From Promethearchaeota archaeon (lineage in GTDB: Archaea; Asgardarchaeota; Lokiarchaeia; Sigyniarchaeales; SOKP01), in NCBI GenBank assembly GCA_016839765.1, contig JAEOTP010000062.1, positions 1-10,086 of the forward strand: a stretch of DNA of 10,086 nucleotides. Reading direction: 5' to 3'. The position numbers and the translations under genes were made by a program. This document shows positions 853 to 7,057 of this stretch, in pieces. Below the pieces are notes generated by a model. The model was not told the DNA's origin. It worked only from the letters and a program-made list of their open reading frames with translations, and searched no databases. Position 1 is the first letter of the stretch. The number at the start of each line of letters is the position of its first letter.

Positions 853-1257
853 TTAAAAATCTTCATATTCTTCTGCTGATTCTTTGTAATCGTCTCCCGG
901 TTCTTCAAACTCCTCTCCAAATTTTTTGAATTCTACGGTGGGTTCTTCTTTAAAAAGAGTCTTATATTCTACACGTTCAGGTTCTTTCTCAAGTTTAATT
1001 AATTTATATTTTTTTTCAAAAAATTTGGGTGGTTTATCTCCAGGCCATAATATATTAGTAATCGCGCCAATTATGATTATCATCACGAATAATATTATAT
1101 ATAATGCTAAATCATTTTTTGGAAAAATTCTTAGTACAACCTCTATCCAATTAATCATCCAAGCTCCAATTGGACTTACAATTGGTTTTAAAAAATTTAG
1201 AATTGCACCTATTATTTCGGCTAATACTTGTAAAAAATCAACCGTTTGAAATATCAT
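853..1257 (-). CDS. Hypothetical membrane protein (amphipathic N-terminus, one strong TM helix, acidic C-terminal tail)
   Basis: Hydrophobic LALYIILFVMIIIIGAITNILW; Glu-rich tail; ATGA start/stop overlap with the upstream gene; GGAGGT SD at 1274-1269. Confidence 0.8.
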   Translation of the reverse strand: MIFQTVDFLQVLAEIIGAILNFLKPIVSPIGAWMINWIEVVLRIFPKNDLALYIILFVMIIIIGAITNILWPGDKPPKFFEKKYKLIKLEKEPERVEYKTLFKEEPTVEFKKFGEEFEEPGDDYKESAEEYEDF

Positions 1258-1766
1258 TTTTTCTCATAACCTCCGCTTATTCCATATCTTTTTTCACGGA
1301 TTTTTTCTCTATTAATAATAAAGTCAACTAAATCATAGCCTTTCAAAACAATAGTAAGAAAGTATATCCCTAGGTATACCATAATCATGTTTTGGAAATT
1401 TAAGAAAAAATATCCAGTCATGTGTTGGGAAGCATCAAATTGGAATAATATATCTGCTGCTCCAGAAAACTTGTAGCTCCATATATACAGACTATTAACT
1501 AGTATCTGAAGTAATGCAAATACTCCCTTACGTATTGATTGTTTGGGGGAAGAATAGGAGAAAAATGCCAACGAGCTAATTAATAATCCAAAAGCAGATA
1601 TCCAAAAAATAATAGATTCATACTCTTGCTGTTCAAGTACTATTGGAATGCCCAGATCGCTCAAATCTTTAATCCAAGTAAATGTAAAATAAGGTATGAC
1701 CATTGTAATTATTATGTAAGCACCCATAAAAATAATACCCTTAATTAAATTCTTTCCTGCTCCCAT
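1254..1766 (-). CDS. Hypothetical polytopic (about 4 TM) membrane protein
   Basis: Four hydrophobic segments, basic C-terminus, strong SD upstream. Confidence 0.85.
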   Translation of the reverse strand: MGAGKNLIKGIIFMGAYIIITMVIPYFTFTWIKDLSDLGIPIVLEQQEYESIIFWISAFGLLISSLAFFSYSSPKQSIRKGVFALLQILVNSLYIWSYKFSGAADILFQFDASQHMTGYFFLNFQNMIMVYLGIYFLTIVLKGYDLVDFIINREKIREKRYGISGGYEKK

Positions 1767-1772
1767 TTTAAA

Positions 1773-1781
1773 CTCCTCCTT
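1773..1781 (-). promoter_or_regulatory. Shine-Dalgarno site AAGGAGGAG
   Basis: Lies 6 nt upstream of ATG1766 and directly after the stop of the preceding gene. Confidence 0.8.
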
Positions 1782-1782
1782 A

Positions 1783-2349
1783 TTATGGAAATGTTCCTAG
1801 TGTAACATTATTTATCCCAAAAGTAAAAGCAATTAAATCTAGAGAATAATAAGCACTTATTGTGAGGTTTCCATGAAATTCTAAAACAGGCGTTCTGAAC
1901 CAATCAATTTCAGTAGTAGCATTTGGAAAATTAGCTTCTATAAAATCTGAACTATTCCCAAAAAATGCACCTGAATAAGTTTGACCTCTTATAATGTTTG
2001 GAAAAGTCTGAGCTTTATCAAAAACAACTGTATTAGTAGTTTCGTTGGTGGGGGTAGAAGCATTCCCAAAAGTCATGGAAATTTTAACCTTGATTATTAG
2101 ATTCGTTAAATCAAAATATCCAGCATTAGTAATATTAAATGGAATAGTAATATCCATACTACTTGGATTTGTAATGTTAAAATTAGCACTTGGTGGACCT
2201 GCCGGAATCTTAATATTTTCATTCACATTCCCAAGGATCATCACAGCAGATAGACCTCCCAAAATTGAAACTACTGTCATAGATAAAGTGAGTAAACCTA
2301 AAAATATTCGAACAATCCATCTGAAAACTCTTGAAGGTCTCATTTTCAT
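1783..2349 (-). CDS. Membrane-anchored protein with an extracellular LEA_2/WHy-like beta-sandwich domain
   Basis: Likely start ATG2349 or ATG2343 (MKMRPSRVFRWIVR): basic N-terminus, then a TM helix, then beta-rich ITIPFNITNAGYFDLTNLIIKVKI resembling the LEA_2 strand-N-P/A-x-x-F pattern; about 8 N-x-S/T sequons. The family call is by eye. Confidence 0.7.
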   Translation of the reverse strand: MKMRPSRVFRWIVRIFLGLLTLSMTVVSILGGLSAVMILGNVNENIKIPAGPPSANFNITNPSSMDITIPFNITNAGYFDLTNLIIKVKISMTFGNASTPTNETTNTVVFDKAQTFPNIIRGQTYSGAFFGNSSDFIEANFPNATTEIDWFRTPVLEFHGNLTISAYYSLDLIAFTFGINNVTLGTFP

Positions 2350-2446: not shown

Positions 2447-2502
2447 AAAATATATTTTATAAATCTATATGGCACGGTTGCTGCCGTTAATCACTATATC
2501 TT
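2447..2502 (-). promoter_or_regulatory. Candidate eukaryote-like SECIS element in the 3' UTR of the HesB-like gene
   Basis: RNA UAUAG-UGAU-UAACGGCA-GCAACCG-UGCCAUAU-AGAU-UUAUA: UGAU/AGAU quartet with tandem G.A pairs, GGCA/UGCC upper stem, and AA 11 nt after GUGA. It is the only GC-rich patch in this intergenic region. The upper helix is imperfect. Confidence 0.4.
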
Positions 2503-2530
2503 CTAAAATTTTCAAGATAAGTACATTTTA

Positions 2531-2917
2531 TTAGCCATATACATTGGAATCTTTTTTCATGAACAAAATTCCTACTTTTTTTCCGTTAACTTCTCCAAGA
2601 GTAGCATCTATAATTACTAAAGGTTTGTCTTCTAATTCTAATATTATTTTTTTTTCAATGTACACTTCAATTTCAAGATCTTTATTTAAATTCTTATTAA
2701 TATTTGTGTTTTGCCATTCAATGAAATCATTATCCTTATAAACTTTGTATTTCTCAACTAACTCAACAACGTTTCCACAGAAACTCATCAATCACGATTC
2801 ATTCGAATAATAAAATAATACTACGACTAATTTTTCTGGATTTTTTTCCCTGTAAAGTTGGTTTTGTTCATGGATATAGTCTAATGCTTTATCTGAAAAT
2901 ATTAATTTAAATACATA
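2531..2917 (-). CDS. HesB/IscA-like small protein with in-frame UGA (candidate selenoprotein); start codon uncertain
   Basis: Frame reads YVFKLIFSDKALDYIHEQNQLYREKNPEKLVVVLFYYSNES-[TGA 2794-2792]-LMSFCGNVVELVEK...IEVYIEKKIILELEDKPLVIID...-TAA TAA. The pattern parallels HesB/IscA (ITLTxxAxxxI ... strand-GGC ... VKVFVD ... IDY). SD-like GGTGAT at 2922-2917. Confidence 0.6.
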
Positions 2918-3051
2918 TCACCAGAATAGTTTTTTTTTAGGTATCCTATTTTATAAGTTATAAATACAAAAACTAAAATATTTTGATAATAATTGCATTA
3001 TAAACTATTATTTTTATGTTCAAATAAATCTAAATCAAAATTGAAGTTATT
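2918..3051. promoter_or_regulatory. Divergent promoter region (HesB-like gene / P-type ATPase)
   Basis: AT-rich spacer with several TTATAA/TATAAA TATA-like boxes (about 2950-2965 and 2998-3004) between divergent genes. Confidence 0.4.
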
Positions 3052-5910
3052 ATGATGGATATAAAAAATCTTAATGCTCATGCAATAACTTCGGATAAAG
3101 TTGAAAAATTACTAGAAACATCAACTGAAACAGGTTTAACTGAAGCTCAGATTAAAACTAGGCTCGAAAAATATGGTAAAAATGAGTTGATTAAAGAAAA
3201 AGGAAAAACCGCTTGGCAAATTTTTATCAGCCAATTCAAAGATTTTTTAATATATCTACTATTTTTTGCGATTATAATATCATTAGCTATAGGAATTTAT
3301 GAATCATCTAAACCTGGAGCTGAAGCTTGGTCTTCAGAGTATACTGATGCAATAGTAATTGCGGCAATTTTAATTGTAAATGCTATATTGGGATTTTATC
3401 AGGAATACCAAGCCGAAAGATCTCTTGAGAGTTTAAAGAAATTAGCTCCTCATTTTGCTAAAGTGCGTAGGGAAGGCAAGGTTATAGAGATAGATGTAGA
3501 AGATTTAGTCCCTGGTGATATTGTGTTAATAGCGGAAGGAGATAAATTTCCAGCCGATATTAGATTATATAAAAAATTTTCACTAAACGTAGATGAGGCA
3601 ATATTAACGGGTGAATCAAAACCTGTCAACAAGCAACTAGAACCTGTAGATGAAAAAATGATTCTAGCAGATAGAACTAATCTAGGATACATGAATACTA
3701 TAATTACAAGAGGAAATGGAGAAGGTATTGTTATTGGAACTGGGATGAACACTGAGATCGGAAAAATTGCAGTAAGCCTGCAGGAAGAAAAAATTGAGCT
3801 TAGTCCCTTTCAAAAAGAAGTAAATAGATTTGGAAAACTATTGGGAATAGTAATATTAGTTATCTGTGCTTTAGTTTTTATAGTTGAACTAATAATTATC
3901 TTAGTTACAGAAGGATTTGCATTTGGACCTAATGAAATTAACGAAATTGTTGAAGCTTTTGAAATTTCAATAAGTCTGGCAGTATCTGCTGTTCCTGAAG
4001 GCCTTATTGTGGTGATTACAGTAGTAATGAGTATTGGAATGAGAAAAATGGCAGATAGAAATGCCCTAGTTAGAAAACTCACTGCCGTAGAAACTTTAGG
4101 AAGAGTTAATGTAATTTGCTCAGATAAAACAGGTACTTTAACAAAAAATGAAATGACTGTTGTGAAAGTTTTCCTAGGAGGAACAGTATATAATGTCGAA
4201 GGGGTTGGTTATGCTATTGAAGGTAAAATTTTTGATGATATGAACAAACAAGTACAAATGAGTGAGAATCTAAGAAGATTCTTAGATGTTTGTATGTTTT
4301 GCAATAATTCAAATGTCTCACCTAGAAATGATGGAACAAATGATACTGATGTTGTTGGAGATCCAACTGAAATCTCAATGAAGGTGTTAGCAATGAAAAT
4401 GGAACTTGATACAAAAGCTGAAAAAATTGATGAAATTCCTTTCAGTTCTGATAGGAAGATGATGTCAGTCGTTGTTAGGATTGATAATAAACTTTATGCT
4501 TTAATTAAGGGAGCTCCAGATGTTTTATTAAAAAACGCAAGTCAAGCTATTTATAACGGGGTAGTAAAACCGATTAATGAAGTAGGCGATAAAATTCTTG
4601 AACAAAATGAAGATTTTGCGAGGAATGCATTGAGAGTATTAGGTGTTGCATATAAACCAATAAATGAAGGTTATAAGGAAGAAGAAATCGAAAGAGACTT
4701 TATATATCTAGGTTTAACTGGAATAATAGATCCTGCGAGAGACGAAGTTAAAGCCTCAATAGAGGAAGCAAGGATGGCCGGAATAAGAACTATTATGATT
4801 ACTGGAGATCATAAAATTACTGCAATGGCGATTGCTCAAAAAATAGGTTTGACAGACTCTCTTGAAGCAATAACCGGAGCAGAATTAGAAGAAATGAGTG
4901 ATGACATACTCCAAGAGAAAGTAAAAACAGTAGATGTTTTTGCAAGAGTGTCATCAGCACATAAATTAAGAATTTTAAGAAGATTAAAAGAATTAGGTTT
5001 AATTGTTTCAATGACCGGAGATGGAGTGAATGATGCCCCTGCAGTGAAAGGTGCTCATGTAGGTGTTGCAATGGGCCTCAAAGGAACCGAGGTAACTCAA
5101 GAAGCTTCTGATATGATATTGATAGATGATAATTATGCTACTATAGTTAATGCAATAGAAGAAGGGAGAGGTATCTTTGAAACAACGAAGGGTTTTTTCC
5201 GCTACATGTTAAGTACAAATTTTGATGAAATATTTTTAATTCTCACTGCCTATATCGTTATGAAATTATTTCCGCTTATGTTTTTGGCGCTGCCGGTCGT
5301 TCCAATACAAATTTTATGGCTTAATATTGCTACAGATGGGATTCCCGCAATGGTTCTTGGTTTAACACCTTCAGATCCTGATGTTATGAAAGAAGAACCG
5401 CGTAAAGGATTTACACTACTCCCAGAAATTAAAGGCCCAGTTCTTCTACTTGGAATTTATACTTCAATTACAGATATCACCCTATATTTATTGTTATGGA
5501 GTGTTTTTATTCCTGCTTGGACCACAGCAGGGATAGATCCTGGACTTGTAAGCGGGGTTACTATTTTCGGTCAAACTTTTACTGCTCAAGAATATGCGAT
5601 CTCATTGACTCAAACAATAGTATTTACTAATCTGGTAGTATGCGAATTGTTGTTCGTCTATACTTGCACATCCAATATAAAACCATTCTATTTATTTCCA
5701 AATAAACATTTATTCTGGGCTACGGGACTTTCTCTTGGATTGCAAATGCTACTTCTTTTTACACCTCTTGGATTAGCTTTTCGTATTGTTCCACTTTATC
5801 ATCCTTACTATTGGATTGCTCTTTTCCTTGGTGCTTTTAGTGTATCTGTAGTGGATGAACTTCGTAAATGGAGATTAAGAAAGAAGAAAGGAATAAAAGC
5901 TAGGAAATAA
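3052..5910 (+). CDS. P-type IIA (SERCA/PMR1-like) Ca2+-transporting ATPase
   Basis: Motifs TGES, AVPEGL, CSDKTGTLT (phospho-Asp codon 4123-4125), KGAPD, DPAR, MITGD, TGDGVNDAPA; N-terminal GL...RLEKYGKNEL; M5 STNFDE, M6 QILWLNIATDGIPA, M8 VVCE. Confidence 0.96.
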   Translation: MMDIKNLNAHAITSDKVEKLLETSTETGLTEAQIKTRLEKYGKNELIKEKGKTAWQIFISQFKDFLIYLLFFAIIISLAIGIYESSKPGAEAWSSEYTDAIVIAAILIVNAILGFYQEYQAERSLESLKKLAPHFAKVRREGKVIEIDVEDLVPGDIVLIAEGDKFPADIRLYKKFSLNVDEAILTGESKPVNKQLEPVDEKMILADRTNLGYMNTIITRGNGEGIVIGTGMNTEIGKIAVSLQEEKIELSPFQKEVNRFGKLLGIVILVICALVFIVELIIILVTEGFAFGPNEINEIVEAFEISISLAVSAVPEGLIVVITVVMSIGMRKMADRNALVRKLTAVETLGRVNVICSDKTGTLTKNEMTVVKVFLGGTVYNVEGVGYAIEGKIFDDMNKQVQMSENLRRFLDVCMFCNNSNVSPRNDGTNDTDVVGDPTEISMKVLAMKMELDTKAEKIDEIPFSSDRKMMSVVVRIDNKLYALIKGAPDVLLKNASQAIYNGVVKPINEVGDKILEQNEDFARNALRVLGVAYKPINEGYKEEEIERDFIYLGLTGIIDPARDEVKASIEEARMAGIRTIMITGDHKITAMAIAQKIGLTDSLEAITGAELEEMSDDILQEKVKTVDVFARVSSAHKLRILRRLKELGLIVSMTGDGVNDAPAVKGAHVGVAMGLKGTEVTQEASDMILIDDNYATIVNAIEEGRGIFETTKGFFRYMLSTNFDEIFLILTAYIVMKLFPLMFLALPVVPIQILWLNIATDGIPAMVLGLTPSDPDVMKEEPRKGFTLLPEIKGPVLLLGIYTSITDITLYLLLWSVFIPAWTTAGIDPGLVSGVTIFGQTFTAQEYAISLTQTIVFTNLVVCELLFVYTCTSNIKPFYLFPNKHLFWATGLSLGLQMLLLFTPLGLAFRIVPLYHPYYWIALFLGAFSVSVVDELRKWRLRKKKGIKARK

Positions 5911-5974: not shown

Positions 5975-7057
5975 TTAATGAGTTATTCTATTTTCTTTAA
6001 TATATTTGAAGAAAAGTCCTATTCCTACTATTTTAAAGGTATCTTGAACGTTAATGTTATGTAATGCGGAAGTCTCAATAAAAGAACATTTAAGTTCGTG
6101 AGCTTTATTTAAACCTTCTTCTTTGGAGATTTGTCGCTGTTCCTCTAAATCTATTTTATTTGCTATAAGTACGATTGGTAAATTACCTAATTCTTTCCGA
6201 GCATCTTTAAACCAAAAATTTATTGCATCATCAAAAGTTTCACGTCGAGTAACATCATAAACTACAAAAGCGCATTTAGCTCCTTTATAATATTCATGTC
6301 TAACACGTTTAAAGTACTCTTGTCCAGCAAAATCGTAGATAAGAAACTTTACAACATCTTCCTTAAATCCTTGGACAAAGTATTTCTGTGTTGAGATGGA
6401 AATACCTAAAGTTGGACGATAATCTATTATGACTTCTTTTTTCAAAAATCGATTAATAAGAGTAGTCTTTCCGACTGCTTTGGAACCTAACACGATAAGT
6501 TTAAATAATTTTTCTCCATTCTCTTCCTTTTTTATTTGATGTACTGCTTTTACTCCCTCAAATAAATTACTTGATTCTGTTAAAGCATACCTATCTAAAC
6601 TCACAGAAATATTTTCGTGAATTTTTAAATCTGGAATTTCTAAAGTATTATAGTTGAAATCAAAACTTTCTTCTAGCAATTGAGCAATTTTCTCAACAAC
6701 AAGATAAGCTATTGGAAATAGATTATTTAAGTCTATCTTATAGCTACAGACTAATAGTAAAATTGCTTCTGGGCCTGCTTCAAGATAAACTATTCTATGA
6801 TCTGAAGTTTCAAATGAACCACTTCCATAATGTCCTATTTTATACTCTAAAGATATTTTATCTAATAGGTTTTCGACTAAAGCAGTTAGTGCACCGTAAA
6901 TTTCATCAATTTCTTGTTCATCATCTATTTTTTTTTCTATATTGCCATACTTAGATATTAAAAGTCCCTGATTAGAATATAAAAAAGCAACTTCTATATC
7001 CTTTTGGGACTCTACAAAATTTTTTAGTAGAATTCCAATATTTTCTTCTTTAGTCAT
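5975..7057 (-). CDS. Roadblock/LC7 (MglB-like) domain fused to a C-terminal Rab-like small GTPase
   Basis: The N-terminal ~130 aa show a roadblock pattern (VAFLYSNQGLLIS...EIYGALTALV...IVYLEAGPEAILLLV). The C-terminal domain has G1 GSKAVGKTT, G2 YRPTLG, G3 DFAGQE, YYKGA, VVYDVT, G4 NKID and G5 ETSA. Confidence 0.92.
   Translation of the reverse strand: MTKEENIGILLKNFVESQKDIEVAFLYSNQGLLISKYGNIEKKIDDEQEIDEIYGALTALVENLLDKISLEYKIGHYGSGSFETSDHRIVYLEAGPEAILLLVCSYKIDLNNLFPIAYLVVEKIAQLLEESFDFNYNTLEIPDLKIHENISVSLDRYALTESSNLFEGVKAVHQIKKEENGEKLFKLIVLGSKAVGKTTLINRFLKKEVIIDYRPTLGISISTQKYFVQGFKEDVVKFLIYDFAGQEYFKRVRHEYYKGAKCAFVVYDVTRRETFDDAINFWFKDARKELGNLPIVLIANKIDLEEQRQISKEEGLNKAHELKCSFIETSALHNINVQDTFKIVGIGLFFKYIKENRITH

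Follow-up and report, generated by a model that had tools for sequence, protein, structure and literature searches.

A gene interrupted by an in-frame TGA

The window, i.e. the whole stretch of 10,086 nucleotides analysed here, contains on its minus strand a called ORF of 86 residues (2531..2791) that opens with a TTG immediately after an in-frame TGA (2794-2792). The same frame is open for 41 further codons upstream of this TGA, as far as another TGA at 2920-2918. A sequence-only reading of the window had proposed that both parts belong to one gene for a HesB/IscA-like selenoprotein. Its description of the locus, with the TGA directly before the ORF and the frame continuing beyond it, was confirmed in the sequence, and the read-through translation agrees with the protein that it quoted. 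It had further held the 41 stop-free codons to be improbable by chance. The open frame stands, but in a window of ~29% GC the chance of such a stretch, estimated from composition alone, is ~3%, and as evidence for a read-through gene it is only suggestive. We regard the comparison of homologous sequences described below as decisive for such a gene. The features of the locus are as follows.

2531..2914, minus strand: predicted full selenoprotein coding sequence with a HesB/IscA-like fold, 127 codons plus a TAA stop (orthologue alignment, AlphaFold2 model, fold matches)
2792..2794, minus strand: in-frame TGA predicted to be read as Sec, residue 41 counted from GTA (~70 homologues, aligned column, Cys in three paralogues)
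2918..2922, minus strand: Shine-Dalgarno-like GGTGA, 3 nt before the start-position codon, conserved
2947..2956, minus strand: TATA-box-like TTATAAAATA, ~35 nt upstream of the start position, kept in close orthologues
2491..2526, minus strand: predicted Loki-type (eukaryote-like type I) SECIS (pattern, covariation, covariance model, RNA folding)
2526-2523, minus strand: SECIS core AUGU (AUGA in most orthologues)
2522-2514, minus strand: SECIS 5' arm, 9 nt
2513-2503, minus strand: SECIS loop GAAAAUUUUAG, 11 nt, A-rich, ending AG
2502-2493, minus strand: SECIS 3' arm with a 1-nt bulge
2492-2491, minus strand: GA after the SECIS stem
2474..2487, minus strand: GC-rich hairpin (ACGG, 6-nt loop, CCGU) directly after the SECIS (covariation)
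3052-5910, plus strand: P2-type (PMR1/SERCA-like) cation ATPase, divergent from the window gene
853-2349, minus strand: three membrane-protein genes, co-oriented with the window gene

The predicted Sec41 and Cys46 make up a U-x4-C motif, which reads U-L-M-S-F-C in the window copy. According to the alignment this pair is present while a Gly-Gly before U and a C-terminal C-x-C are absent, just as the sequence-only reading had described. The codon at the start position, GTA (2914-2912), is non-canonical and lies 3 nt after the GGTGA; none of the upstream 41 codons is ATG, GTG or TTG. A GGTGA or GGTAA is found at the same spacing in nearly all orthologues of the genus, and we infer a promoter role for the TATA-box-like element further upstream. 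Most copies have ATG, TTG or GTG at the start position; the closest relative has ATA, another CTG, and a 50%-identical orthologue GTA. Non-canonical start-position codons were seen among orthologue loci L006, L020, L022 and L026. The idea that a single extra T would bring an out-of-frame ATG into frame with the gene was also considered but is not supported: at that place the closest relative has ATA, and an ATG is absent.

Conservation of the TGA and both flanks

A six-frame search identified orthologues spanning both halves of the gene in 24 of 36 genomes from the same genus, with 50-79% identity. Each of these 24 has one internal TGA (one also has a terminal TAA), and in the alignment of 19 of them the TGA occupies a single column. 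This column falls where conservation of the protein is highest, in the block L-V-V-V-L-F-Y-x-S-x-E-[ST]-U-[TL]-M-x-[FL]-C-G-N-x-V-E-L-V-E, in which the Cys five residues after Sec is almost invariant. A profile search of 400 Asgard genomes identified, in 56 of them, ~70 copies that contain a single internal TGA; in a few copies a second stop falls where the match ends. Within the Lokiarchaeial family to which the window belongs, 53 of 134 genomes, distributed over 13 genera, bear TGA copies. The TGA is thus conserved together with both flanks, a pattern that the sequence-only reading had named as a check. That reading had also named conservation of the 41 upstream codons: close pairs have dN/dS values of 0.10-0.22 on both sides of the TGA (39 codons before, 86 after), which indicates purifying selection on the upstream part.

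The copies fall into three types. Type 1, which includes the window copy, has the motif U-[TL]-M-x-F-C-G-N; no type 1 copy has a C-terminal Cys, the C-terminus being K-K-x-S-N-V-Y-G. Type 2 has R-S-U-S-G-x-[FY]-C. The third, a Cys type, has Q-A-C-A-G-S-Y-L: its Cys occupies the U column, and a second Cys is lacking. The types are often arranged in tandem; in one genus the Cys type lies between Sec type 1 and Sec type 2. Cys occupies the U column in three stop-free paralogues (genus g27) as well as in P0069 and P0074, which bears out the TGA/Cys pairing that had been put forward as a check on the UGA position. A 1022-residue match, P0060, proved to be an unrelated repeat protein and was discarded.

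Two remote homologues fall outside the main family. L061 (G307:C4) has U-S-G-T-F-I without a second Cys and a GUGA-core SECIS, while L062 (G051:C49) has an adjacent U-C, and a clear SECIS was not seen at this locus. They may represent the outer limits of the selenoprotein family.

Fold and relation to known HesB-type families

An AlphaFold2 model calculated from a 19-sequence alignment (pLDDT 83, pTM 0.79) has the element order strand-helix-strand-loop-strand, with U41 and C46 in the loop. Foldseek against the PDB ranked IscA (1r94) first with E 4.5e-4, followed by SufA, HI1723, 2p2e, 2qgo and 1x0g. VIA-align against 48,161 chains gave the same picture: the top seven matches are all of IscA/SufA/DsrR/HesB type (Z 8.7-5.0), and the next match has Z 2.7. 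Individual Z values are 8.7 for IscA, with 97 of 97 residues aligned, 7.8 for SufA, 6.9 for DsrR, 6.4 for 1x0g, 6.1 for both 2p2e and 2qgo, and 5.0 for HI1723.

At the level of sequence, the window protein and its 19 orthologues reach the threshold of no Pfam or NCBIfam model, and a profile search against PDB sequences returned nothing up to E 10. The model for HesB-like selenoproteins, TIGR01911 (HesB_rel_seleno), does not match the window protein, and one of the 19 orthologues matches it at E 0.064; PF01521 does not match type 1 copies. It is the Cys paralogues that come closest. P0074 scores 22.1 bits with TIGR01911 (E 1.8e-4; cut-off 66.35 bits) and P0069 scores 19.4 bits with PF01521 (E 1.3e-3; gathering threshold 26.3 bits). 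Weak sub-threshold matches of a few members were also obtained with two further HesB-superfamily (seleno)protein subfamilies, NF041239 (CC/Se motif family (seleno)protein; 16 against 40 bits) and NF038090 (IscA_HesB_Se; 15 against 85 bits). The sub-threshold matches of Cys paralogues to these four models therefore provide a sequence link to the HesB superfamily. The fold that the sequence-only reading had assigned is borne out by the model, as is its description of the family as divergent.

The same reading had placed the UGA at the position of the first ligand Cys of IscA. The order of elements fits this placement, but a global hhalign comparison with a reference of Asgard PF01521 proteins and E. 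coli IscA, although it pairs U41 with IscA Cys35, is non-significant (probability 1.7%, P 0.011), and we treat the modelled U41/Cys35 register as tentative. A homologue set of E. coli IscA had been tried as reference profile and was dropped, as it contained near-identical sequences only. In 40 genomes of the archaeal family no canonical PF01521 protein was found; such proteins are present in other Asgard families.

HesB-like selenoproteins and Loki-type SECIS elements are both already known kinds. TIGR01911 proteins, described from Methanococcales and anaerobic bacteria with a UxGP motif (PMC1794560, PMC13188914), resemble the window family in their small size, their single domain of HesB/IscA fold and their one Sec in the loop after strand 2, and Cys homologues are known for both. 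They differ in the motif, which is U-x4-C in the window family (U-L-M-S-F-C in the window, U-S-G-x in type 2), in a best score of 22 bits against 66 that is reached by a Cys paralogue only, and in the SECIS, which is eukaryote-like here and of Methanococcus or bacterial type there. The window family is, furthermore, nearly confined to one Asgard family. A-type carriers (IscA/SufA/ErpA, PF01521; 1r94, 2d2a, 1x0g) provide the best structural matches (Z 8.7-6.4) and share the order strand, helix, strand, ligand loop, strand. In contrast to these, the window family lacks the C-terminal C-x-C ligands, has an extra Cys five residues after Sec, and does not reach the PF01521 threshold. Judged by sequence comparison and modelling, the proteins appear to form a divergent family of HesB-like selenoproteins with a U-x4-C centre.

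A predicted Loki-type SECIS element after the stop codon

The putative SECIS starts 5 nt after the stop codon of the window gene. The element, with a 9-bp stem, an 11-nt loop and the GA, is present in every type 1 and type 2 copy checked from other genera; a few copies missed by the pattern script were read by eye. The core is AUGA in 16 of 19 orthologues of the genus, and in all copies read from other genera but three (one ACGA, one GUGA, one without the element). No SECIS is present in the 3' regions of the three Cys paralogues. Across 29 diverse copies, 90.9% of cells are paired, compared with 79% in shuffles and 45-51% with slid partners, and compensatory changes on both sides occur in 11 of 13 SECIS pairs. 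The GC-rich hairpin that follows (helix 2) covaries too, with three of its four pairs changed on both sides. Taken alone, the SECIS hairpin is thermodynamically unremarkable (z -1.3).

A strict SECIS pattern has six matches in the 3.3-Mb genome, located 3' of HdrA, VhuD, VhuA/VhuU, the window gene and a small ORF on contig 12, with one probable chance match. HdrA and VhuD each contain two UGA. The bare pattern gives ~2.4 matches on average per simulated genome; the pattern alone is not rare, but its placement right after the stops of UGA-bearing genes is. A covariance model (R1) built solely from the 3' UTRs of the HesB-like family and run with filters off on the fetched loci matches four of these loci over the full length, both hairpins included: HdrA at 28.8, contig 12 at 27.8, VhuD at 24.7 and VhuU at 22.8 bits. 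Run over the whole genome with default filters, it matched the window's own element alone. The SelD 3' UTR does not match the model, as expected because the SelD SECIS is of a different type. Rfam gave no SECIS family match up to E 10; according to Mariotti et al. (PMC4989117), Loki SECIS likewise escape tools for archaeal, bacterial or eukaryotic SECIS.

In its architecture the window element equals those of HdrA, VhuD and VhuU in the same genome. It also agrees with lokiSECIS, or Asgard type I eSECIS-like elements (PMC4989117, PMC11227280): a position in the 3' UTR beside the stop, a stem of 9 bp, a loop of 11 nt with an A-rich start and a terminal AG, and GA after the stem. The window copy departs from these in its core, which is AUGU where they have AUGA, and in the 1-nt bulge of its stem. 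A further difference is that a GC hairpin always follows here, for which no description was found in the sections consulted of the two publications. Small GC-rich hairpins also accompany the HdrA, VhuD and VhuU elements of the same genome. The GC hairpin may be a terminator or an accessory SECIS helix.

A GC-rich hairpin of 4-5 bp with a 6-nt loop lies within ~5 nt downstream of each Loki-type SECIS observed, both in this genome and in the family, further examples being L067 2182-2251, L068 1586-1653 and L069 625-694; in many copies the hairpin is followed by a T-run. The AUGU core of the window also occurs in two relatives (genomes G273 and G022; loci L006 and L026), and L017 has AUAA. These variants sit in genes that otherwise appear to be constrained.

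The contig-12 match belongs to a second candidate selenoprotein absent from existing lists (G000 contig C12 3643-3834, plus strand; locus L070 644-835). Its ORF encodes 64 residues with a single membrane pass and an in-frame TGA in G-G-G-U-P-C, and has a lokiSECIS 4 nt after the stop (27.8 bits with R1). Orthologues were present in 8 of 60 other genomes of the archaeal family, each with exactly one TGA, at 36-89% identity.

Sec machinery

The Sec machinery, whose presence the sequence-only reading had named as a check, is encoded in the genome. It comprises tRNA-Sec, SepSecS (475 bits), a full-length PSTK-like gene that scores below the equivalog cut-off, and a SelD gene with an in-frame TGA. 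The bacterial SelB model TIGR00475 does not single out EFSec among the GTPases of the genome. Presence of SepSecS was dropped as a discriminator, since nearly every genome of the archaeal family has it (130 of 135).

Genomic context

The window gene sits between the P2-type ATPase gene and the membrane-protein cluster, both of which are conserved neighbours, and nearly all type 1 loci in the genera for which loci were fetched retain the pairing with the ATPase. In three complete sister-genus genomes that have no copy of the selenoprotein gene, the ATPase and the membrane cluster lie ~340 nt apart (L106-L108), with no gene remnant between them. A functional link to the ATPase is thereby weakened: as the ATPase and the cluster persist side by side in relatives without the gene, the location is inherited and the neighbours are independent of the gene. 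The selenoprotein gene has been cleanly lost or gained between the two.

Elsewhere in the window, 5975-7057 (minus strand) encodes a fusion of a Roadblock/LC7-type N-terminal region and a Ras/Rab-like small GTPase (146 bits with Pfam Ras). Proteins of this type are typical eukaryotic-signature proteins of Asgard archaea.

Interpretation of the locus

Taken together, comparative and structural computation makes it highly probable that 2914-2531 is one gene of HesB/IscA fold whose UGA is decoded as Sec via the Loki-type SECIS. This single gene would encode a cytosolic protein of ~127 residues. The UGA at codon 41 would be translated through the archaeal/eukaryote-type pathway (tRNA-Sec, PSTK, SepSecS, SelD and EFSec), with the hairpin 5 nt after the stop directing Sec insertion. 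The Sec would then lie in the loop after strand 2, at what would be the first ligand Cys/Sec site of A-type Fe-S carriers and HesB-like selenoproteins.

It could be argued that the family consists of genuine selenoproteins but that the window copy itself is poorly expressed or decaying. The GTA at the start position, with no ATG, GTG or TTG before the UGA, would fit such a scenario, as would the AUGU core where 16 of 19 genus orthologues have AUGA. In addition, the minimum free energy fold from RNAfold pairs the core U with the G of the 3' GA, and this U-G pair would remove one of the sheared pairs of the kink-turn. However, the frame is intact and dN/dS is 0.15-0.18 in comparisons with G019, G022 and G013. 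G273 and G022 share the AUGU core and have diverged (dS ~0.7) under constraint, and the ATA, CTG and GTA found in other orthologues suggest that such starts are tolerated. As the frame is both intact and under constraint, we consider decay of the window copy unlikely.

Far less probable is that translation stops at the UGA and that the locus makes two products, the 86-residue ORF from TTG 2791 being a real protein and the upstream part a leader or small ORF. In NCBI MAGs the protein is indeed annotated as a hypothetical protein of 85-86 residues, and a TTG-ATG lies directly 3' of the TGA; that standard gene callers would truncate the gene had been foreseen from the sequence. Nevertheless, conservation in the alignment peaks at the residues on either side of the TGA, and the upstream part evolves under purifying selection and, in the window copy, lacks a start of its own. 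The Cys paralogues are continuous, the AlphaFold2 model forms one compact domain over both halves with all 97 residues of IscA matched, and the SECIS is found only in TGA-bearing copies.

A reading of the UGA as Trp, Cys or Gly, through a variant code or near-cognate read-through, can practically be dismissed: full-length database proteins from metagenome gene calls (P0002, P0005, P0011, P0035 and others) do have W at the Sec position, but the fetched genomic loci that share their motifs have TGA there, and the identical motifs make the W residues best explained as gene calls made with genetic code 4 for contigs that are short and AT-rich; in this genome TGA serves as stop (167 of ~1370 long ORFs, plus one window gene) and TGG encodes Trp, the other window genes lack internal TGA, SECIS and Sec machinery are present, and paralogues have Cys, the usual counterpart of Sec, in the UGA column.

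Returning to a gene read through as a selenoprotein, we infer an active centre formed by the U-x4-C pair, with a function in redox chemistry or in metal/Fe-S handling. The pair could act as a selenenylsulfide redox couple, or as a two-ligand (Se,S) site that would form a four-ligand metal/Fe-S/selenide site in a dimer. The absence of the C-terminal C-x-C would make IscA-style cluster binding impossible. A dimer with two Se and two S that carries Fe-S clusters, iron or selenide by means of selenium is a speculative and rather improbable version of the second option; if true, the archaeal lineage closest to eukaryotes would have a selenium-dependent system in place of IscA chemistry.

Implications

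The published Asgard selenoproteome comprises seven families found by homology to known ones (PMC11227280, PMC13188914). The U-x4-C HesB-like family is absent from the lists consulted, and our literature searches found nothing on it. Searches built on homology to known families would leave such a family invisible. Database entries with W in place of the TGA could in addition mislead homology-based Sec/Cys checks.

Together with the ORF on contig C12, the U-x4-C family suggests that lineage-specific selenoproteins of Asgard archaea have been under-counted. The family also yields dozens of natural, covarying Loki-type SECIS sequences, core variants such as AUGU and AUAA included. These natural variants of the core quartet are useful test cases for the core requirements of Loki SECIS, and they bear on the origin of the eukaryotic SECIS.
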